The position numbers and the translations under genes were made by a program. A DNA stretch of 43,553 nt, taken from NCBI GenBank assembly GCA_937902595.1, contig CALELH010000620.1, forward strand, positions 1-43,553, written 5' to 3'. This DNA comes from an uncultured Myxococcales bacterium. GTDB taxonomy: Bacteria > Myxococcota_A > Bradymonadia > UBA7976 > UBA1532. This document shows, one piece after another, positions 22,010 through 40,405 of this stretch; the stretch's first letter is position 1, and the number at the start of each line of letters is the position of its first letter. Below the pieces are notes generated by a model. The model searched no databases and was not told where the DNA came from. It was given only the letters and a program-made list of their open reading frames with translations.

Positions 22010-23656
22010 ATGAAAGTGCCCACATTGAAGATCACAAGTCATGTGTCCCTGCTCGCTCTGTTCTGCTGTGCCTTATTGACAGCGTGTGTGGCCAAGGAGC
22101 CGGCTCAACCCGAGGGCAACAGCGCTGACAGTGGAGCCCCCGACGAAAGAGAGCCAAATCCGTATCTAGATCTCGACGAAGATGGATATCCACCCAACGA
22201 TGGGGACTGCGATGACACCGATGACACCGTAAGTCCCGACGGACGGGAGGTCTGTGATGACGGAATTGACCAAGATTGTGACGGTGAAGACCTCAACTGC
22301 GAAGACGCCGATCAAGACAGAGATGGCTATAGCCCTGCTGAGGGTGACTGCGATGACGAAGACAATCGACGTCGGCCTGGCCGGCTAGAGACCTGTGATG
22401 ATGGAGTCGATCAAGACTGTGATGGGAGAGACCTTCCCTGCACTGAGGTAGACCAAGACGGAGACGGTCTGAGCGAAGCCGAAGGCGACTGTGATGACAT
22501 GAACCCCAGGGTCAGGCCAGGGTTTGGAGATCGCTGTGGAGACGGCATCGATCAAGACTGTAGCGGGTCCGACCAAGAGTGTTCGACGGGCGGTGACCGG
22601 GATGGAGACGAAGTCGTCGATGAAGAGGATGTATGTCCGGAGACCCCTGATCCGCTGCAATCAGATGGTGATGGAGACGGCGTGGGAGATCTCTGTGACA
22701 ACTGCCTGAGAGTTTCCAATGCTGACCAGGCTGATCGGGACAACGATGGGGTCGGCGACCTCTGCGACGACGATGAGGACACCGACGGAGATGGGTTCTC
22801 GGCGACGCGAGGAGACTGCGATCCTGATAACCCCGACGTCTATCCGGGCGCTATGGAGACATGTAACCAAATCGACGATGACTGCAACGGGTTTGCCGAT
22901 GATGGCTGTCCGAGTGACCTGAGAAGCGAGACAGTGCGCTTCGCGGCCGGGCCGAGCCTACTCGGTAGCTTGGACGCAGATCCCGACAGGTGCTTGATGG
23001 ATCCACGCTCCGACGAGAACTGTGACGAGGTCCCTCAACGAGAGATCCAATTGAGCGCGTTCTCAATCGATGTACACGAGGTGACCAACGCTCAGTATGC
23101 TGCGTGTGTCGAAGCGGAGCGATGCCGTCTGCCGGACAATCAGGATCGCTATAATGACCCACAATACGCGAACCATCCTGTGGTCTGGGTGAACCAAACA
23201 CAGGCATCAGGCTACTGTGGCTGGGCGGGCGGCAGCCTACCGACAGAAGCTCAGTGGGAGCGCGCCGCGCGTGGCGCCAGCCCGCTGATGCACAGTCGAT
23301 ATATCACGGGTGACGCCGCCCCCACTTGCCAGCAAGCAAATCTACTCGGCTGCGGAGGAAGTACGGTCGATGTTGGCACGACGGCAGGAGACGTCACCGC
23401 ACAAGGCGTCCAAGATCTGGTGGGCAATGTCCACGAGTTCATTCAGGGATGGTACGACCCAATCTATTACCGCCGCCTGCGTCCTCAAGACCCGATGGGG
23501 CCAGAGGCGCCCGGCATGATGGGCCTGATCCCGGTGAGAGGCGGTAGCTTCGCCGAGACAAGCGACTTCTCTACCATCACGTATCGTGGATTCCGGCATC
23601 TCATGAATAATCGAATCGAAAGTGATCGCGTCGGCTTCCGCTGCGCCCACGACTGA
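22010..23656 (+). CDS. Lipoprotein with Asp-rich MopE-like/thrombospondin type-3 repeats and a C-terminal FGE-sulfatase-fold (SUMF1-like) domain
   Basis: Lipobox LTAC; four DxDxDGY..GDCDD..P..E.C.DG.DQDCDG-type repeats; QSDGDGDGVGDLCD; HEVTNAQY, LPTEAQWERAARG, DLVGNVHE, RGGSF, VGFRCA. Confidence 0.87.
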   Translation: MKVPTLKITSHVSLLALFCCALLTACVAKEPAQPEGNSADSGAPDEREPNPYLDLDEDGYPPNDGDCDDTDDTVSPDGREVCDDGIDQDCDGEDLNCEDADQDRDGYSPAEGDCDDEDNRRRPGRLETCDDGVDQDCDGRDLPCTEVDQDGDGLSEAEGDCDDMNPRVRPGFGDRCGDGIDQDCSGSDQECSTGGDRDGDEVVDEEDVCPETPDPLQSDGDGDGVGDLCDNCLRVSNADQADRDNDGVGDLCDDDEDTDGDGFSATRGDCDPDNPDVYPGAMETCNQIDDDCNGFADDGCPSDLRSETVRFAAGPSLLGSLDADPDRCLMDPRSDENCDEVPQREIQLSAFSIDVHEVTNAQYAACVEAERCRLPDNQDRYNDPQYANHPVVWVNQTQASGYCGWAGGSLPTEAQWERAARGASPLMHSRYITGDAAPTCQQANLLGCGGSTVDVGTTAGDVTAQGVQDLVGNVHEFIQGWYDPIYYRRLRPQDPMGPEAPGMMGLIPVRGGSFAETSDFSTITYRGFRHLMNNRIESDRVGFRCAHD

Positions 23657-23662
23657 AGGCGT

Positions 23663-24196
23663 CTAGAAGTCGACCTTTTGTCGGCGAAGCGCCTTCTCCT
23701 TTTGCTTTCGTTCCTCACGCTCAGCCTTCGTCTCCTTGATGGCGAATTTTGTCTCCGCGAGGATTCGACCACCTAGGCTGACGACCAAACGATACTTGTG
23801 CTCCACAGGGAAATCCTTCTTCGTCATGGTGAAGCCGCTGGCCAAGATCTGCGTGGTCCGCTGATTAGGCATGATCGGAAAACTGATCGCCTGGCGACCC
23901 CGGTCTGACAGGTCGTACACAATCGCGATAAACTCGGTCGCGCGCTTGGCTTTTCGGAAGAAGGCCATGAACTCTAGATTAAGGGTCCCTGACTTCGGGT
24001 ATGAGACCTTCCGCACATTGACCTTCTTCATGTGCCGGATGAAGGCTCGATCACTCTTGAAGGCACCTGGGAAAGGGGTCTTTGACAGAATCACTTTGCC
24101 CCCAAAGACTCTCGCCGGCTTCCGGGCTTCGGCCGATGTGGTGAATCCAATGAGGATCAAACCAGCCAGTAGAATGAGTGGAAGTCTTTGGATCAT
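23663..24196 (-). CDS. Hypothetical secreted basic protein
   Basis: Signal MIQRLPLILLAGLILIGFTTSAEA; beta-rich core and charged helical tail. Confidence 0.7.
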   Translation of the reverse strand: MIQRLPLILLAGLILIGFTTSAEARKPARVFGGKVILSKTPFPGAFKSDRAFIRHMKKVNVRKVSYPKSGTLNLEFMAFFRKAKRATEFIAIVYDLSDRGRQAISFPIMPNQRTTQILASGFTMTKKDFPVEHKYRLVVSLGGRILAETKFAIKETKAEREERKQKEKALRRQKVDF

Positions 24197-24411
24197 AAAG
24201 CTGACCTTTCCAATGAACAGATAAACCAGAGTATCGAAGGGTACTCCAAGCGGATATGATAATCCCCGGCGGTCAGACGCGAGTCTCGCTAAAAAATTCG
24301 ACGTACCGCCCTCTTTTGGGCGACAACGAGGTTGACCACGGGCGCAGGGATCGACAGCCTACGGCCAGGTGCGAAGGCAACTCAGGCTGAGTAGATAGGA
24401 TAGCGACAGGG

Positions 24412-26598
24412 ATGAGGGAGTCTATTTTCGGGTTTGTATTAGCCGGCCTCGTCGTCGGTTGCGCCGTCGGCGCCGTGCAGGCTGTCTTCGGGTTCCCTTC
24501 AAATCATGGACTACACTTCCTCTTAGGCTCGGTCGGTCTTCACGGTTTGTTTGCTCTCCTGATCACGCTTGTACTCGGAACACTCCACCCCTTCGTCCCC
24601 GCGAACCTTGAGCTCTCATCACTGATAAAGAGCGCCAAAGGACACCTGCTCCCCCACCAAGATGATGCTTTGCAGGGGCGATGCCGAGTTGTGACGACGA
24701 TCTGGGTGACGGGCTTCACGGTGATTGGCTCCATTCATCTGCTCAACGTCGGTTACCACGTCTTACTCTCCCGTGTTCAGGCGCCCGAGTTCGCCGCGGT
24801 TGGCGTAGCCCTCTTTGGACTGGCGGTCATTACAACGGTGCTGGCCTTTGCTACCCCGGTGCGGGCGGCAGGCTCCCGTCTATTTGAAACCTTGATCCGG
24901 AGAAACACCGCGCTCACCTTCCTGGTTCATCCTTTGGGCAACTTGATTCTAGCCCTCACCCTTTGCGCGGTGTGGATGGTCGCCAACGCTGATCGCGACG
25001 AGAGTCTCGTCAAGATGGTCCCATGGGTACCCGTACTCGCATTCACTGTGATCGTCTTTGGCTCGGTCGCTGGGGGTGAATGGATACGAGAGCGCCTCGT
25101 TCGTCTCACGTGGCTCAAGTGTCTTCAGCTGTGCCTGATCCCAATCTTTCTCACCACCATCGGAGCTGTCGGTGGGCTGAGATCACCAGGTGCTCGAGTC
25201 GCGCTCGCTAAGCAGCCAGGCCTAAACCAATTGATGATCACCGCCATGCGCGCTCCCTTCGATCAAGATGAAGATGGCTTCTCCTCTGTCTTGAGTGGCG
25301 GTGATTGTAATGACTCGGATCCCAATATTCATCCGAATGCATTAGATATCCCCGGCAGCGGGGTCGATGAGAACTGTGACGGTCAAATGGCGGTCCAGAA
25401 AGTGAACCCAACGACGGTCGATCAATGGCCGGTCTCCTTAGACACACTCGGCTTTCGGCCTCCATACAGTGTCGTCTTGGTGACCGTCGAGTCCTTACGA
25501 TCAGATCATGTTGGATTCTACGGTTACGGAAGAGAGACCACACCGGCGATCGATGATCTCGCGGCTGAGTCGGTCGTCTTTAGAAAAGCCTATTCAGTCT
25601 CAAGTACTCCGCAGATGTCCGTCGCGAGCATCATGTCTGGTCGATACCCATCAGAGCTCATGAGGGACCGTGGTTTCTTCCCGAAGTTCGACCAGAGCAA
25701 CATCTTCATCGCTGAGCTGCTCGCGGAGTCAGGTTTCCACACTGCAGGATTCCCCAGCCATTGGTATTTCCGTGAGGAGAGCGGGTTTGAACAGGGCTTC
25801 GGGCTCTGGCAGCCATATGCCGTAGAGCGCGGTCGAATGCGCTTGGTACCAACGGCAGAGACGGTCGTCACTGCGGCGGTAGAACATCTTCACAGGCTGG
25901 CGCCTGACCCTGAGCGCCCGTACTTCCTCTGGTTGCACATCATCGATCCGCAGCCTCGCTACATCGCTCATCTTGACGTGCCTAGGTTTGGTGCGTCGGC
26001 GGTCGATAGATATGACCATGAGCTCAGATACGTTGACACGTGGCTAGAGTGGTTCTTCGAGACTCTCCGAAGGCGAGAAGACTGGAAGCGGACCGTCGTT
26101 GTTCTTGCGGGAACCCAAGGCGAGAGCTTCCAAAAGATCAAGCCAGCGAGGCTGAGTCAAGCAGACCTAAACGTCCCTTTAATGGTGCGCGTACCTGGTC
26201 TCCAACCTCGACCAGTGGAAGCGCCCGTGAGTTTGGTCGACATCATGCCGACTCTGCTCGACCTCGCCGGACTTGAGGCCAACTCTCCGAAACGAGAGAA
26301 GATCACTCTCCGGGGCACGAGCTTACTCCCACACTTTATTGGGCGCGACCAGGAGCGGAAGCCAATCTTCGCTGAGCTACCCCAATCAGATGAGAGCGCT
26401 ATGCAATTGGCCTGGTTGGATGGAAACACGAAGCTCTCTTTTGATGGCCGAGAGAACACATGGAAATTGTTCGACATCACCAGAGACCCGTGGGAGCAGG
26501 AAGATCTATTACCTACCCGACCTGCTTTGGGGGCCCGCTTGAAGACGTCAATGCGCCAATTCAGAAGTAACCTGACGATCACGCCCGCCCGAAGATGA
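24412..26598 (+). CDS. Multi-TM sulfatase/alkaline-phosphatase-superfamily protein with one Asp-rich repeat; catalytic motifs degenerate
   Basis: About 7 N-terminal TM segments; DQDEDGF..GGDCND..DENCDG; VTVESLRSDH, TPAIDDLA, SGRYP, GFEQGF, VPLMVRVP, VSLVDIMPTLLDL. Confidence 0.85.
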   Translation: MRESIFGFVLAGLVVGCAVGAVQAVFGFPSNHGLHFLLGSVGLHGLFALLITLVLGTLHPFVPANLELSSLIKSAKGHLLPHQDDALQGRCRVVTTIWVTGFTVIGSIHLLNVGYHVLLSRVQAPEFAAVGVALFGLAVITTVLAFATPVRAAGSRLFETLIRRNTALTFLVHPLGNLILALTLCAVWMVANADRDESLVKMVPWVPVLAFTVIVFGSVAGGEWIRERLVRLTWLKCLQLCLIPIFLTTIGAVGGLRSPGARVALAKQPGLNQLMITAMRAPFDQDEDGFSSVLSGGDCNDSDPNIHPNALDIPGSGVDENCDGQMAVQKVNPTTVDQWPVSLDTLGFRPPYSVVLVTVESLRSDHVGFYGYGRETTPAIDDLAAESVVFRKAYSVSSTPQMSVASIMSGRYPSELMRDRGFFPKFDQSNIFIAELLAESGFHTAGFPSHWYFREESGFEQGFGLWQPYAVERGRMRLVPTAETVVTAAVEHLHRLAPDPERPYFLWLHIIDPQPRYIAHLDVPRFGASAVDRYDHELRYVDTWLEWFFETLRRREDWKRTVVVLAGTQGESFQKIKPARLSQADLNVPLMVRVPGLQPRPVEAPVSLVDIMPTLLDLAGLEANSPKREKITLRGTSLLPHFIGRDQERKPIFAELPQSDESAMQLAWLDGNTKLSFDGRENTWKLFDITRDPWEQEDLLPTRPALGARLKTSMRQFRSNLTITPARR

Positions 26599-30390: not shown

Positions 30391-33300
30391 ATGACATTCG
30401 ATACCAAGCTACTGAAGACCACGCTGCGCGCAGCCGCGCTGCTGCTTCTCTTCGGCGCTTGCGGTCAATCATCGGGTTGCTCTGGATGTGGTGGAGAAAA
30501 AGAGGCGAGCTTCCCCGATAAGGACCGGGTGCATAGCGCCGCGCAGCTCCGCGTCACTCGCAGCGGATTGACCTTTCTCGAAGAAAACCTAGAGCCGCTG
30601 CTTGCGGCCGCTCTCCCAGAAGGTGGTCTGAACATCTGCTTGCCGGGCGAATCAGGCCGAACAATTGGGATCAATTATGGGTATTGCCACCAAGACATGT
30701 GCGCTGAAGGGGGCCTCGGTTGCCAACTAAACATCGCCATTGGAGGTGTAGATCTCACTGCTGAGGAACCCAACACGATCCGCGCGTTGATCGAGTTCGA
30801 CGCGCTGTCTGCGCGCATTCCGATCGAAGCCAGCCCCATCGCCGAGTGTGCCATCCTCATTGATGGATCCGGTTTCAACGTTGAGTTTCCCTTGACCTTA
30901 CTCACGCCGGAGCCTGAACGCTTTTTGAGCTTCGAGTTGGCGGAGAACCCACAATACCAACTGAGCGATATCGACGTTCGGTTTGAAGGAGAGGGAGGAT
31001 TCCTGGGCTGGATCTGCGACGGCATCAGCCTGGTCGTCAATCTCCCCTTCATCCGAGACCTCATCTTCGACACGATTCAGACATTCGTCGATGGGTTACT
31101 GGCCGACCAGATCCGAGGCTTTGTCGAAGATTTCACCTGTCGGACCTGTGAGAGCGATCGCGCCTGTCCAGGAAACCTCGGCGCGACGTGTAACGATGGG
31201 CGGTGTGAGTTTCCCAATGGCCGCTGCGTCGCCGCCAAACTTGGAATAGATGGTCGGTTAGATGTCGGTGATGTGCTGAGCACCGTGACACCTGGTCTGA
31301 ACGCGGTGGTCGACTATCTCGCCGTCGCAGGAAGCTACGCTGAGGTCGAGAACGGCGGGCTGTCCTTGGGTGTCGTCAGTGGCGCGATCAGTCAGAGAAA
31401 CCGATGTGTGCCCCAGGTCGTTCAACCACAAGTCTTTGAGCCGATGCGGACAGATCTCCTGAGGGGAAACCTCGATCTATTAGAGCGTGATTATCATCTG
31501 GGTATTGGTGTGACCCGTGAGATCGTGGAGCATTTTACCTGGGCATTTTTCAACGCAGGCAGCTTGTGCGTTCAGATTACGAACGCGACGGTTGAGCAGT
31601 TAAACGCTGGAATATTGAGTATTGTGCTCCCAGACCTCGCAAATCTGGCCGGTAATCCAGAGGCCCCGGTCGCCATTGCTCTGGCACCACAAAACCCGCC
31701 AGAGGTCGTGTTCGGCAACAACCAGTTTGAGATGGACGAAGAAGGAAACAGGGTACTGGTCGATCCGGCGCTCCTCATTCGGATCCCTGAGCTCTGGTTG
31801 GATTTCCACGTGTTCATGGAGGATCGCTGGGTGCGCATCTTCAGTCTGCACGCCGACATCGAGCTACCCGTTGGCCTAGACTTCACACCCAACAACGAGA
31901 TCATTCCAATTATTGGAGACCTCTCAGAGGGCCTCACAAATATTCGAACAACGAACAGTCGGATCATGCGTGACAGTCCCGATCTATTGGGCACCCTGCT
32001 ACCCGCCCTCCTTTCAATCTTCGTCGGTGACTTGGTGGGCGGGATCGTTGAGCCGATCGCGCTGCCCGATCTCCTCGGCTTCAGTTTGGACATGCAAGAT
32101 GGATCCATATCTTCCATCGAAGAGGGGGCATTTCTGGCCATCTTCGCCCGCCTCGCACAGGCTGAAGCACCAGCGCCAGACGGCGAGATGGGCGAGATGG
32201 GCGAGATGGGCGAGATGGAGGCTCCTCTGAGCGCGACCGTCGAGACTCGTATCAACGACGTCCTAGTGAACACACCCGACACTCACGAATTTAGAGCCGC
32301 AGGACCCAATACCTGGAAGCGCATCGAGGTGCTTCTCGAGATCGAGGCGGGCGACGGTCGAGCAATCGAGAGTCCAATGGAGGTCTCCTGGAGGGTCGAT
32401 GGGTCCACTTGGAGCCCTTTTCAGCCCGCGGGAAATCTAGTAGCGCGGCATCCCATGTTCTTGCTTCAAGGTCGCCACCAGTTGGAGGCGCGGGCGCGGA
32501 GAGTTGGGGACTATAGAAGCTTAGACGCAACGCCTGACAGCGTTGAGATTATCATCGACTCCATCCCACCAAACCTGACGTTAGAGGCGAAGGACGGTGT
32601 TGTTCATATCACCGTAGACGACATGGTGTCTCCGCGGGGGTCGATGCTCCTAGAGGTGCTCAGAGCGGGCGATCGATGGGAGGAACTCCACGAACCCGTA
32701 GTCGAATGGGACGGAGAGGGTCTACTCGTCATTCGCGCGACGGATGAGGCCGGTAATGAGGTCACGGAGAAACTTGGCGAAGGACGCGCTGCGCTCATCG
32801 GTCGTCCACCGATCGATCAACGAGGTCAGACGGGCTGCGACTGCGACGCGAGCGGCTCCAGCCCAGCAGGTCTTTGGTGGCTCAGCCTCCTCATTTTGGG
32901 ACTAAGACGAAAGAGACGGATGACGAGCGCTCTGCTACTCGTAGTTGCGCTCTCCGTCATCTCGATGGGGTGTGATGACAGCTCAGGTGCGAGTAAAGAT
33001 GGAGATCCCGACGGTGGCGTATCTCCCACCCTTTGTACGGATTCTAGTGAATGTGCTGAGCCCAACGAGGCCTGTCTAAGCGGTCGCTGCGGGCTAGTTG
33101 ATTGCCGAGATGGCTCCGACGTATGCGATCAACTCTCGTGTCCGGACGGATCACCCAGGTGTAATGATCGCGGCCTCTGCGAATGCGAACCTTTCTGCGC
33201 CCAAGGGTGTCCAGAAGGCACCTACTGTTGTCCCGCTGAGGATGCCTGTAGGCCGCTACCTGAGGAGTGTACAGAGCTGCGATGTGACCCGTCTCAGGAG

Positions 33301-34602
33301 CGCCGAGTCGAGTTTGTGGATGAAGGCAACCCCCTGGCGTGCGGGGACGAGATCTTCGAATGTGAGTGTCTCGATCAAGCCCCATTAGCGATTGGAACCA
33401 TCGGTCGATTCAATGACATCGCCGTCGTCGGTGACGTGCTTTGGGTCTCTGCATACTCGGATACATACGGTGATCTGGTCGTCGGTCGGTACAATCAAGC
33501 GACGGGTTTTGAGTGGCAGTGGGTCGATGGCTTACCCGCCGAAGGGATACCCGAAGCAAACCCGACCGGTCCAAGAGGCGGCCTCATCGGCCCAGGTCCT
33601 AATGTTGGACAGTACACAGCCCTCGCCGCAGCAGAGAACGGAACGCTCCACGTCGCTTACTACGATGTTGACAACCGTACCCTCAAATACGCTCGGGGTA
33701 CTCTCGATGGAGACGTACATGTCTGGGTCACAATGACCTTGGACGCTGACGGTGATGCGGGTCGATGGGCTAGCATAAGCCTCAGTGATGATGGGGCACC
33801 CGGGATCGCGTATCGAGTGGCCAGCTTGGAGGGCGTAAGCCAGCTTCGCTACCTACAAGCGGCGAGCTCGACCCCGATGAACTCCGACGAATGGGGTGAG
33901 CCGCTCATCATTCATACCCGCGCGCTGGATGATCCCGATCCCGAGACAGGCGCCTATCCAGAAGGTACGGGACTCTTCACTACGCAAGACCGAGACCCAG
34001 ACGGTCTCGCGGTAGTCGCCTGGTATGATCGAACAGAAGGCTCACTGTGGTGGGCACGAATGAATGACGCTGGTTTTGATGAACCAGAGATGCTCGCCGG
34101 CTGGGGATATCAAGATCCCGACAGAGATGGAGATATGGGCGCCAACGTCGACCTCGTCTTTGATGCGACCGGCGAAGCGCATGTCTGCTATCAAGATGGC
34201 CTCACCGACTCTCTCCGATATTTGGCACCAGGTTTGGACCACGATGAATGGGTCGACGACGGCGTGTGGCTTGACGTCGGCGGGCGAGGACATTCCGTCC
34301 ACATCGTCGGGGATGACTGCAATATGCTCACAGATCTCCAGGGCAGACCGCTCATCGTGTATCAAGACAGCACCATGCAGGCGCTGCTATTGCGTCGCCG
34401 AGACCAAGTGACGCCGGATCTGATCGAAGGATGGGGTAGGCGGCGCGCGCTCCGCGGAGACGGTGGCGCCATCATGGGCGCGTTCGGTTTCTACGCCAGC
34501 GCACGGCGAAGCGGAAACCAGGTCTGGATCGTCCACTTCGTGTATCGAAACCACCTAGAAGAGCCTGAAAATGGGCTAGAGGTGCTCACCGTAGAGCTCT
34601 AA
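30391..34602 (+). CDS. Large surface lipoprotein: BPI/LBP(TULIP)-like region, Ig-like domains, internal MYXO-CTERM-like tag, second lipoprotein signal, Cys-rich region and beta-propeller-like repeats
   Basis: GGAGG RBS; lipobox FGAC; AQLRVTRSGLTFLEEN; LGIGVTREIVEHFTWAFFNAGSLC; IRATDEAGN; GCDC..AGLWWLSLLILGLRRKRR; MTSALLLVVALSVISMGC; repeats of the HVAYYD..LKYA type. Confidence 0.85.
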   Translation: MTFDTKLLKTTLRAAALLLLFGACGQSSGCSGCGGEKEASFPDKDRVHSAAQLRVTRSGLTFLEENLEPLLAAALPEGGLNICLPGESGRTIGINYGYCHQDMCAEGGLGCQLNIAIGGVDLTAEEPNTIRALIEFDALSARIPIEASPIAECAILIDGSGFNVEFPLTLLTPEPERFLSFELAENPQYQLSDIDVRFEGEGGFLGWICDGISLVVNLPFIRDLIFDTIQTFVDGLLADQIRGFVEDFTCRTCESDRACPGNLGATCNDGRCEFPNGRCVAAKLGIDGRLDVGDVLSTVTPGLNAVVDYLAVAGSYAEVENGGLSLGVVSGAISQRNRCVPQVVQPQVFEPMRTDLLRGNLDLLERDYHLGIGVTREIVEHFTWAFFNAGSLCVQITNATVEQLNAGILSIVLPDLANLAGNPEAPVAIALAPQNPPEVVFGNNQFEMDEEGNRVLVDPALLIRIPELWLDFHVFMEDRWVRIFSLHADIELPVGLDFTPNNEIIPIIGDLSEGLTNIRTTNSRIMRDSPDLLGTLLPALLSIFVGDLVGGIVEPIALPDLLGFSLDMQDGSISSIEEGAFLAIFARLAQAEAPAPDGEMGEMGEMGEMEAPLSATVETRINDVLVNTPDTHEFRAAGPNTWKRIEVLLEIEAGDGRAIESPMEVSWRVDGSTWSPFQPAGNLVARHPMFLLQGRHQLEARARRVGDYRSLDATPDSVEIIIDSIPPNLTLEAKDGVVHITVDDMVSPRGSMLLEVLRAGDRWEELHEPVVEWDGEGLLVIRATDEAGNEVTEKLGEGRAALIGRPPIDQRGQTGCDCDASGSSPAGLWWLSLLILGLRRKRRMTSALLLVVALSVISMGCDDSSGASKDGDPDGGVSPTLCTDSSECAEPNEACLSGRCGLVDCRDGSDVCDQLSCPDGSPRCNDRGLCECEPFCAQGCPEGTYCCPAEDACRPLPEECTELRCDPSQERRVEFVDEGNPLACGDEIFECECLDQAPLAIGTIGRFNDIAVVGDVLWVSAYSDTYGDLVVGRYNQATGFEWQWVDGLPAEGIPEANPTGPRGGLIGPGPNVGQYTALAAAENGTLHVAYYDVDNRTLKYARGTLDGDVHVWVTMTLDADGDAGRWASISLSDDGAPGIAYRVASLEGVSQLRYLQAASSTPMNSDEWGEPLIIHTRALDDPDPETGAYPEGTGLFTTQDRDPDGLAVVAWYDRTEGSLWWARMNDAGFDEPEMLAGWGYQDPDRDGDMGANVDLVFDATGEAHVCYQDGLTDSLRYLAPGLDHDEWVDDGVWLDVGGRGHSVHIVGDDCNMLTDLQGRPLIVYQDSTMQALLLRRRDQVTPDLIEGWGRRRALRGDGGAIMGAFGFYASARRSGNQVWIVHFVYRNHLEEPENGLEVLTVEL
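32182..32217 (+). repeat. Perfect 9-bp tandem repeat GGCGAGATG x4 (GEM x4) in an interdomain linker
   Basis: Read directly from the sequence. Confidence 0.95.
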
Positions 34603-38033: not shown

Positions 38034-40232
38034 TCACTTTCGCTCCGCCAGGCTGAACGTGGGCGCCTCAACACGCAGATGTCTCCCGAGGTATACCCGA
38101 ACCAAACCATGTTCATCTGTCCTCCAGAGAGGAATCTCGAGACCACGAATACGCCTAACGACCTCTGAGTGGGGAAAACCGTATCGGTTATCCAATCCTA
38201 AACTCGCGACTGCGTACCGCGGTTGCACGACCTGGAGCATACGACGGCCGGTGCTCGTGCGACTGCCATGATGACCGAGCTTCAATACGTCGACCCGGCC
38301 CGGGTTCATGGCGGCCAACCTCGCCTCTCCCGCGCGCTCAAGATCACCAGTCAAGAGGACCGACCCCGAATATCCATCTATACGCACCGCGATGGACCCA
38401 TCATTCTCCGACATCCAGGAGGACCTCAAAGAAGGGAACGTTCTCACATGAAATCGACCAAAATGGTTGTCCGTACGACCCGCTTCTCGAATCTCAACGC
38501 CCGTCTCTTGGGCGTACTCCAAGATCCTTTGCCAGGCTTGATTATCCGTAGTCCGCCAGGGATGAATGAGGCGTACGACCTTAAAGTCCCTCAGGATTGA
38601 AGTCAGTCCCAAGAAGTGGTCCGGGTGGTAGTGGGTGACGATCACTTCATCCAGGGTGTGGACGCCCATGAACCGTAGATATCCACGCAAGTGGTATGCC
38701 TGCGCGGATGGTCCGGCGTCAATGAGCACCGCCTTACCCGCAGACCTCAATAAGATGGCATCCCCCTGGCCAACGGACACAAAATCGACGGCATCGTCCT
38801 CTGGTCGAAGGTGTAACGCGCCACAAACTAAGAGCGTCGTGAGCAGGAAAGACAAGACGCGCCAGCGGAGAAAGAGCGGACAAACAAATAAAACGAGCCA
38901 GAGAGGAGTTGTCCAGCGACCAACCACCCATAGTCCACCAAACAAGTCGGCTATAGATTCGTTCAGGGCGACGAGAAGCTCTGCGACATGCGCTGCCCAA
39001 CTCAAAGGCGTCGTCGTGAGGGGTGAGCATAAGAAGCCGAAGAACCCAAAGGGGATTACGAATCCACTGGCAAGCGGCGTGATCACAAGATTTGAGAGAG
39101 CTGCTCCCGGAACCACGACACCAAAATGCCACGCCTGGACTGGCATAGTCGCGACGCTGGCTGCTACAGCAGTTCTAAGCCAAGACAGTGGCCCGCCATC
39201 ACCACTCGCGAAGATCAAGAGCGTGAGAACAACGCCGAAAGACAATTGGAACCCGACGGTCGAGATCACGGATGGCTGCGCCGCGATTAACATGATGGCC
39301 GCCAACCCCAAGGTGTTCGTAGTCGACTGTCGCCGTCCAAAGGCCACACACAGCAACATGACCCCAGCCATAACTCCTGCCCGTTGGGCGCTGATGGGGA
39401 GCTGCGCCAAGAGGATGTAGCCGATCATAGGAGGAAGCGCAGCTAACGCCGCCCAGCGGTGGGCACGCCGCCACCCCAAGGTGAGACCAACGCTTAAAAA
39501 GAAGAAGAATACGATCCAGACAGTCACGGCTACGTGAAGTCCGCTCACCGCGAGTAAATGTGCTGTTCCAGCTGACTCAAAGGAGGCAAGAGCGGTCTGT
39601 GGCACGGCTTTACGGTCACCGAGCAGCACACCCGTGAGTACGCCTGCGCCATAGGATGGCTCAATAGACTCTAGAATCTTGCGCCCGGCCGACCTCATCC
39701 GAAAGATCAACTGTGACAGTCCGTTGGCGGGTCTTAGGAGCTCGACCGGACCACGACTCGACCAAAGAACACCAACGGCACCATAGGTGGCGCTAGCGTC
39801 AAAACCCCCTGGATTGGATCGTGGCAACAATCGAGTGAAAGGCCCCTCGACGATGACATTCGATCCCGGTGAAACCCCTCTAAGAGGACGACTAAGCGTC
39901 ACCTTTACTGAGGATTTAGTGGAGGGCGAAACATCGACAATGACTAAAGCCTTAGAGGCCATAATCTTGACGGATCGTACTCGGCCAGGCAGGCGGTCGT
40001 AGAGAGAGAGGTCCTCATCTTGAGTTCCTCTCTGTTGCTCCAATTGACCGCAGATAGCACCGGCTACGAAGACCACACAGGTCAAGAAATAGGCGGGGTC
40101 ATATCGATGGAGAGCGAGGGCGCCTATCAAGGCCAATGGGATGGTCCAAGACCAGCTGATGGGAAGCCATCCAAAGGTCACTCCTAGGCTCATCGCAAAC
40201 GCTAAGATAAGCCACCGGTTCGTTGATTCCAT
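38034..40232 (-). CDS. comEC: DNA internalization competence protein ComEC/Rec2
   Basis: NPGGFD, AHLLAVSGLHV, GFQLSF, SVGQGDA, THYHPDH, TGDLE, KLGHHGS. Start placed at the ATG at 40232. Confidence 0.93.
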   Translation of the reverse strand: MESTNRWLILAFAMSLGVTFGWLPISWSWTIPLALIGALALHRYDPAYFLTCVVFVAGAICGQLEQQRGTQDEDLSLYDRLPGRVRSVKIMASKALVIVDVSPSTKSSVKVTLSRPLRGVSPGSNVIVEGPFTRLLPRSNPGGFDASATYGAVGVLWSSRGPVELLRPANGLSQLIFRMRSAGRKILESIEPSYGAGVLTGVLLGDRKAVPQTALASFESAGTAHLLAVSGLHVAVTVWIVFFFFLSVGLTLGWRRAHRWAALAALPPMIGYILLAQLPISAQRAGVMAGVMLLCVAFGRRQSTTNTLGLAAIMLIAAQPSVISTVGFQLSFGVVLTLLIFASGDGGPLSWLRTAVAASVATMPVQAWHFGVVVPGAALSNLVITPLASGFVIPFGFFGFLCSPLTTTPLSWAAHVAELLVALNESIADLFGGLWVVGRWTTPLWLVLFVCPLFLRWRVLSFLLTTLLVCGALHLRPEDDAVDFVSVGQGDAILLRSAGKAVLIDAGPSAQAYHLRGYLRFMGVHTLDEVIVTHYHPDHFLGLTSILRDFKVVRLIHPWRTTDNQAWQRILEYAQETGVEIREAGRTDNHFGRFHVRTFPSLRSSWMSENDGSIAVRIDGYSGSVLLTGDLERAGEARLAAMNPGRVDVLKLGHHGSRTSTGRRMLQVVQPRYAVASLGLDNRYGFPHSEVVRRIRGLEIPLWRTDEHGLVRVYLGRHLRVEAPTFSLAERK

Positions 40233-40405
40233 TGGTCGAAGGATCTCCCTATCAGTGTCCAAAGGACTAATCGGACAACTGAGGGGCCCGTTGCGGAAAA
40301 GGTGAGAACATAGCGAAGCTAGGTGTCCGATCATTGACCGCATTCCGGAGTTCGTGATAGCCCGCGGTAACCCCATTGCTGTTGGGGCATAGTCAAGAGG
40401 TGTAC

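Follow-up and report, generated by a model that had tools for sequence, protein, structure and literature searches.

MYXO-CTERM is normally a C-terminal surface-sorting tag, and a basic stretch followed by a hydrophobic helix and a lipobox Cys is a substrate of signal peptidase II (LspA). Sorting tags and lipoprotein signals are treated as chain-end features by annotation pipelines and predictors; what becomes of a protein in which one of each lies in mid-chain, back to back? The question is raised by a gene on contig CALELH010000620.1 of an uncultured Myxococcales bacterium, a marine predatory-type organism. The whole 43,553-nucleotide stretch analyzed here is referred to as the window, and its forward-strand positions 30391-34602 form one stop-free frame of 1403 aa. 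An initial annotation, made from the DNA letters, proposed that an internal MYXO-CTERM-like tag runs in frame into a second lipoprotein signal and that the product is a precursor of two lipoproteins. From comparison of fused and split relatives we favor, with moderate confidence, a reading in which cuts by LspA and the myxosortase MrtP would release two proteins, a β-propeller lipoprotein and a BPI-like protein with a lipid anchor at each end.

The junction and its two signals

Translation of the gene matched exactly, in letters and coordinates, the in-frame succession of Cys motif, helix, RRKRR, helix, and lipobox Cys with a long tail that had been described initially. In order, the junction consists of G815, C816, D817, and C818, a short Ser/Gly/Pro spacer, a hydrophobic stretch (A826-L838), RRKRR (R839-R843), M844 (ATG at 32920), an uncharged stretch to G860, and Cys861 (TGT, 32971-32973), which is followed by 542 more residues. 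A separate lipoprotein-type signal, LLLLFGA-C24, is present at the N terminus of the open reading frame (ORF). A heuristic six-frame scan of the genome, over all 2552 open frames 300 aa or longer, placed the pattern Cys/helix/basic cluster/helix/[GAS]-Cys in three positions, all of them real genes and none in non-coding frames: the window gene, its paralog, and one unrelated gene. The internal junction pattern is more than chance.

Neither a lost stop codon nor a frameshift is present over the junction in independent contigs from three studies. In contigs of the public runs X1, X3, and X4 the junction is free of indels and stops, with 0 gaps. The X1 contig, which may come from the source sample, has 0 differences to the window, X3 has 0 differences over 32802-33064, and X4 represents a strain ~95% identical, with the whole kilobase on one contig carrying 44 substitutions and 0 gaps. 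Nine of the X4 substitutions fall within 32862-32964, seven at third codon positions with no stop created, and the remaining two are conservative (Ala to Val and Val to Ala), both within the second hydrophobic stretch. No RNA run was listed among the public runs that contain the sequence. Class-wide, 93 of 113 genomes match the family (E ≤1e-20), and by manual reading of the genome match table 83 of these have a single frame across the junction, 1 is split, and 9 are unscorable because the contig ends there. The family extends beyond the class: of 301 genomes in a phylum-wide sample, 91 match (E ≤1e-25), some of them with fused frames, as in G308:C22, where query residues 16-871 lie inside a 1297-aa frame. 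One ortholog (G023:C36:35394-39526) is found in two frames, with a break at query residue 961/962 that lies within the second half and not at the junction; this may be a frameshift or an assembly error.

The first element has the parts of a MYXO-CTERM tag, with GCDC as the Cys signature, A826-L838 as the transmembrane helix, and RRKRR as the Arg-rich cluster, and the TIGR03901 model scored the tag at 24.5 bits in a six-frame genome search (cut-off 20; the lower hmmscan scores are weighed below). The genome contains a total of 31 MYXO-CTERM matches over the cut-off, 29 of which end 0-10 residues past the match and closely resemble the tag in the window. The two non-terminal tags are those of the window gene, where 560 residues follow the match, and of a protein on contig C57. 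A count of N-terminal lipoboxes among the other MYXO-CTERM proteins of the genome gave 9 of 22 and was set aside, as it includes evident false calls. Judged by sequence, only its position distinguishes the first element from an ordinary MYXO-CTERM tag of this genome. A cognate MrtP is encoded in the genome (NF040674, 365.6 bits, cut-off 250; myxosortase core model NF040914, 150 bits, cut-off 100). There is also a GspD-type secretin (G000 C299:88-1530) that scored 348 bits against a cut-off of 351, the match being shortened by the contig end, and the genome probably encodes a type II secretion system; type II secretion is needed for surface display in the Myxococcus xanthus model. MrtP is the myxosortase type named for the Bradymonadales (Haft preprint, 10.1101/2023.06.07.544157). 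The "lipo-invert" C-terminal anchoring domain NF058595 was considered as another candidate and rejected, since it scored 17.8 bits against a cut-off of 37, had no genome match over the cut-off, and gave sub-threshold matches in 10 of 14 control genomes, which makes it non-specific; we found no paper using the term "lipo-invert".

The second element combines the basic n-region RRKRR, a 17-residue uncharged h-region (M844-G860), and the lipobox SMG-C861, and it begins at residue 839 of 1403, so it is not at the precursor N terminus. A lipobox regular expression (after PROSITE PS51257) fits this internal signal and 88 of 105 homologs; for the N-terminal signals of those proteins the fit is 76 of 99. 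At the aligned position, the equivalent of the internal signal is a true N-terminal signal in the second genes of split pairs (L033, L061, L063, L064, L066, and L067) and in 10 standalone second-half homologs (570-740 aa), all of which open with lipoprotein-type signals. The 18 residues past Cys861 are predicted by AlphaFold2 (AF2) to be disordered, as in lipoprotein tethers. The earlier suggestion that the Arg cluster serves both signals fits these data, with loops in fused proteins down to 3 residues and a short basic n-region of its own in the split second gene. The genome encodes LspA (104.5 bits), two Lgt proteins (G000 C287:9005-10499 and C675:593-1432, one of them immediately downstream of lspA), and Lnt (234.8 bits). 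An Lgt-like enzyme has been proposed for lipidation of the MYXO-CTERM Cys (PMC11980579).

Fused and split forms of the junction

The succession of Cys motif, hydrophobic stretch, basic cluster, hydrophobic stretch, and G/A/S-Cys is found in 32 of 32 genome loci aligned with MAFFT (25-58% identity, including the paralog on contig C13), where the residues after the lipobox Cys are mostly Asp, Ser, Gly, or Glu. It is also found in 112 of 112 database proteins, 105 recognized by regular expression and 7 by eye; these were retained from 188 collected proteins by BLAST matches to both halves, a definition of membership adopted because an earlier junction heuristic had missed 22 of 107 long proteins. 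Eight of those 22 have 7 to 15 matched stretches, lack in the junction region a basic cluster with a lipobox Cys behind it, and resemble unrelated repeat proteins. Among the 105 proteins parsed, the lipobox -1 residue is G in 76, A in 27, and S in 2; the cytoplasmic loop spans 3-29 residues (median 6) with a net charge of +3 to +11, and the first and second hydrophobic stretches are 11-21 and 12-31 residues long. Among the 32 loci the residues between the signal features vary freely, with neither loop nor helix sequences conserved. As far as alignment can tell, the signal features are conserved and the intervening sequence is not, and the prediction that homologs would retain the Cys/helix/Arg/helix/Cys pattern has held throughout.

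In L014 and L015 (G026 and G025; family f2) the hairpin loop has grown to ~29-40 residues rich in His, Ser, Val, and Arg, with both flanking signals retained. A tandem pair of family members occurs on one contig in G028:C220:15920-23970 and likewise in G007:C209:10956-20622. A homolog is also encoded at G035:C1:4599782-4603969 of a complete 5.05-Mb genome.

The family is fused in some loci and split in others, exactly at the junction, the comparison that had been proposed at the outset. In the split locus L033, the first gene (P0154, 843 aa) corresponds to the first half and ends with RRRRRGEDQ followed by TGA, and the second gene starts 20 nt on in another frame, with a basic n-region, a hydrophobic stretch, and FG-C-DD. 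The first half of L034 is 82% identical to that of L033 and is fused, and the junction DNA of the two loci differs by more than a single indel. Eight further loci comprise six split pairs (L061-L064, L066, and L067), one first half alone with a terminal tag, and one fused frame cut by the contig end. The first gene of each pair ends in a terminal MYXO-CTERM, and all seven first-half genes at these eight loci stop 0-21 aa past the basic cluster. In five of the six pairs (L061, L063, L064, L066, and L067), the start codon of the second gene overlaps the stop of the first by 1-2 nt and the second gene encodes a lipoprotein-type signal; the sixth pair, L062, is ambiguous. Given such an overlap, a single upstream base change would put both genes into one frame, with the tag's Arg tail running directly into the Met and signal encoded by the second gene, as seen in the window.

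For 48 second halves, of which 32 are fused, 6 split, and 10 standalone, we inferred a quick maximum-likelihood tree that does not include L062, L065, and L068. Split L033 is placed beside fused L005 within a fused clade (support 100), the fused paralog of the genome sits among split forms (support 99), and the fused state requires at least three changes on the starred branches of this tree. The fused form most likely arose, to judge from these comparisons, by fusion of two translationally coupled neighbor genes, the first with a terminal MYXO-CTERM and the second with a lipoprotein signal, and Met844 would then probably be what is left of the start codon of the second gene. Fission and fusion have recurred at the same point, which shows that the covalent link is dispensable. 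The paralog (G000 C13:713-4633; L044) shares ~25-29% identity with the window gene and has the same internal junction in a 1306-aa frame; its closest relatives from other genomes are, on the tree, split pairs.

The same arrangement recurs in a second family. The contig C57 protein (L043:1-2952, minus strand), unrelated to the window gene, consists of a lipoprotein-type signal, a trypsin domain (PF00089), and MopE motifs, after which come a MYXO-CTERM and another lipoprotein-type signal; the frame continues for at least 279 residues beyond it, to the contig end. The junction of this protease is present in four of four same-genus loci, and in other genera the family has a terminal tag in four of four loci, ending 0-8 residues past the Arg cluster.

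Proposed processing and its alternatives

Applied to two hydrophobic stretches joined by a positively charged loop, the positive-inside rule predicts that the junction forms a hairpin and that both large halves lie outside the cytoplasm. The chain would cross the inner membrane beginning with its N-terminal lipoprotein signal and the exported BPI-like/Ig half; the MYXO-CTERM helix would then act as a stop-transfer segment, leaving a five-residue Arg/Lys loop in the cytoplasm, and the lipoprotein signal would serve as a re-export helix for the Cys-rich/propeller half. Lgt and LspA would act at Cys24 and at the internal Cys861, and the cut at Cys861 would free the propeller half as an ordinary N-terminally lipidated lipoprotein. 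MrtP would cut at the lipidated Cys816/818, leaving the BPI-like half lipid-anchored at both ends, and the hairpin of ~45 residues would be discarded. We infer both cleavages, both lipidations, the final location, the 1:1 ratio of the products, and the function of the pair, which might, as a matter of speculation, be to recognize lipids or glycans at the surface of cells in a predatory lineage.

The strongest argument for this processing is evolutionary: judged by their genes, the two halves work separately, each with the usual terminal signal; fused and split states have replaced each other several times; and no signal feature is lost on fusion. Several points weigh on the other side. Both cleavages are deduced from sequence, we found no literature report of Lgt or LspA using an internal signal with an n-region joined to another helix, and MrtP would have to accept a tag that has no free short tail. 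With hmmscan, TIGR03901 scored 17.3 bits on the whole protein and 18.1 bits on the first half, both below the cut-off of 20, and of seven homologs scanned with this model four pass, one reaches 19.2 bits, and two are without a match. One homolog, P0166, has Val at lipobox -1, and the lipobox +2/+3 residues are mostly Asp. Asp at +2 and +3 causes inner-membrane retention in E. coli, and the surface location of the propeller half is therefore uncertain. The mixed TIGR03901 scores of the homologs agree with a remark in the Haft preprint, in the part covered, that the model is short and needs curation.

It is possible, and we think unlikely, that only one cut is made: LspA would free the propeller lipoprotein and the BPI-like half would stay in the inner membrane on the hairpin, or conversely MrtP would free the first half and the second would be held by an uncleaved signal-anchor. 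The literature search found no precedent for internal LspA sites, the acceptance of the junction context is presumed for either enzyme, and the tag falls under the cut-off in hmmscan, all of which would suit a single cut. However, all 112 homologs retain the two Cys positions, and the split forms give each protein a complete, ordinary signal, which argues that both are normally processed.

The hairpin could instead be a permanent anchor, making the product an unprocessed inner-membrane protein with two periplasmic domains in which the Cys pair has another use, for example as a disulfide. Hairpin-anchored proteins are common, and such an anchor dispenses with the cleavages that the two-cut reading presumes. 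We consider it quite improbable nonetheless: an anchor would not need G/A/S before an invariant Cys (111 of 112 homologs), nor a MYXO-CTERM signature like those of the terminal tags in the genome, and it sits poorly with a covalent link that repeated fission and fusion show to be dispensable and with loop and helix sequences that vary freely.

The initial annotation had offered an internal translation start at 32920 as its own alternative. The second half would then be translated on its own from this ATG, and the gene would comprise two overlapping cistrons. In the window this ATG stands right after the Arg cluster and is preceded by a purine-rich stretch, and split relatives have a start codon at the same spot. 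The start is not conserved, however: 16 of 32 loci are without an in-frame ATG, GTG, or TTG from the loop through the first six h-region residues, ATG is present in 8 of 32, a Shine-Dalgarno-like motif in 2 of 32 and, with the pattern used, not at the ATG in the window, and Met is found near the loop in 21 of 105 proteins. Such a start would also leave production of the full-length chain in place, and we regard this explanation as very improbable. An assembly or sequencing artefact, in which a lost stop or frameshift merged two genes of a genome fragmented into 837 contigs, is already refuted by the indel-free agreement of contigs from three studies and by the fused frame, present in 83 of the 93 matching genomes of the class and in other families of the phylum.

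Folds, precedents, and meaning

Structures were predicted with AF2 from alignments of 49 and 58 rows, and the resulting models agree with the TULIP-like half and propeller half that had been proposed (Table 1). By Foldseek, the first half resembles BPI, LBP, and CETP (1ewf, E 3.1e-15; template modeling score, TM(target), 0.63 for 1ewf and 0.66 for 1bp1), with two Ig/FN3-like domains after the BPI-like module. The second half consists of a Cys-rich region and a seven-bladed propeller (8q82_A, E 3.2e-13, TM(target) 0.74, 12% identity). The likeness to BPI/LBP/CETP (TULIP) proteins and to Photorhabdus PLL-type propeller lectins is at the fold level, with 9-14% identity and no Pfam match, LBP_BPI_CETP included; a Pfam search with the whole protein and each half detected no family at E up to 1. 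The ESM Atlas gave scores of at most 0.83, weak leads only, among them LBP_BPI_CETP_C (0.82).

Table 1. Positions in the window of the ORF, its signals, and its predicted domains (pLDDT, predicted local distance difference test)
Feature	Position	Strand	Basis
Whole ORF, putative precursor of two lipoproteins, 1403 aa + stop	30391-34602	+	Fused frame kept in 83/93 class genomes with match
N-terminal lipoprotein-type signal, lipobox Cys24 (codon 30460-30462)	30391-30462	+	Cys invariant (C1 of 49-row alignment)
BPI/LBP/CETP-like (TULIP) tandem lipid-binding fold, predicted	30517-32169	+	AF2 pLDDT 86.5 (first-half model), Foldseek; no Pfam match
Two Ig/FN3-like β-sandwich domains, predicted	32242-32784	+	AF2 secondary structure (model residues 595-775), FN3-type Foldseek matches
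Internal MYXO-CTERM tag	32833-32919	+	TIGR03901; resembles 29 terminal tags of genome
Tag parts	Cys816, 32836-32838; Cys818, 32842-32844; helix, 32866-32904; RRKRR, 32905-32919	+	
Second, internal lipoprotein-type signal: shared n-region RRKRR, h-region M844-G860, lipobox SMG-C861	32905-32973	+	G/A/S before Cys in 111/112 homologs
Disordered tether after Cys861, predicted	32971-33024	+	AF2 pLDDT <50, residues 1-18 of second-half model
Cys-rich region ahead of propeller	33028-33375	+	Near-invariant Cys columns C70-C133, AF2 model
Seven-bladed β-propeller, predicted	33376-34599	+	AF2 pLDDT 91.9 (second-half model); Foldseek PLL-type lectins

The genes on either side, both on the other strand, give no functional clue: upstream is a Ser/Thr kinase with PEGA domains and downstream an SLT/TPR transglycosylase. 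Also upstream, positions 22010-26598 encode a sulfatase and a protein of the FGE-sulfatase type, each carrying MopE "putative metal-binding" motifs. A ComEC-type competence protein with a metallo-β-lactamase domain is encoded at 38034-40376 (minus strand).

With the known MYXO-CTERM/myxosortase sorting systems (TraA with MrtX in M. xanthus; MrtP in the Bradymonadales) the gene shares the Cys signature, the helix, the Arg cluster, and a cognate MrtP gene. It differs in that the tag lies 560 residues from the C terminus and its Arg tail leads directly into a second export signal. With the bacterial lipoprotein pathway (Lgt, LspA, and Lnt) it has in common the basic n-region, the 17-residue h-region, Gly at -1, the invariant Cys, and the enzymes, whereas its signal is internal and the n-region is tied to a preceding transmembrane helix. 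Polyproteins offer a third comparison: signal peptidase cleaves flavivirus polyproteins at internal signal sequences, and an internal signal sequence is also part of a Bradyrhizobium polyprotein, the FbcH cytochrome b/c1 precursor. There too, a single chain has membrane segments that restart export and is cleaved at the outer face into separate proteins. Those polyproteins use cuts of the signal peptidase I type, whereas the cuts proposed here would be lipid-dependent, made by signal peptidase II and a CPBP-type intramembrane protease.

An internal MYXO-CTERM is itself already known in print. Rare ORFs with internal MYXO-CTERM motifs were stated by Guo, Haft and Wall (mBio 2025; PMC11980579), whose example in M. 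xanthus, MXAN_5598, is an adhesin followed by the tag and an outer-membrane barrel with an OmpA domain; the authors suggest a gene fusion, propose that the N-terminal part is processed, and cite LPXTG and ArtA work for sorting tags functional in mid-protein. The same paper reports that MrtX processes a MYXO-CTERM in E. coli. The words internal, fusion, fused, and polyprotein are absent from the Haft preprint. MXAN_5598 shares the internal tag with the window gene, but its C-terminal part is described as an outer-membrane β-barrel with an OmpA domain, and the sections of the 2025 paper covered here mention no lipoprotein signal after the tag. It is, in those sections, one gene in one species, whereas in the design described here a lipobox follows the tag, the arrangement is class-wide, and it recurs in a second family. 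A tag directly before a lipobox signal, with one shared basic cluster, found class-wide and in a second family, was not encountered in the MYXO-CTERM literature covered.

On a broader proposal our judgment is evenly balanced: the tag and lipoprotein signal together may form a portable, self-removing membrane linker, a hairpin of ~45 residues that would be excised by MrtP and LspA. If true, a gene for a tagged surface protein could fuse with a lipoprotein gene behind it, or split again, with function intact; the linker would do in bacteria what internal signal sequences do in viral polyproteins, and it would represent the first natural action of signal peptidase II inside a protein. If both cuts are made, LspA and the myxosortase would be able to act at internal sites, two-gene surface modules could be welded or unwelded by a one-base change, and one product would carry a lipid anchor at each end. 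The junction would also provide a compact natural substrate for studying the lipidation step of the MYXO-CTERM pathway. For the organism, the gene suggests that predatory-type Myxococcota pair a bacterial BPI/LBP-like protein with a lectin-like propeller, and this pairing may, speculatively, bear on the handling of foreign outer membranes.

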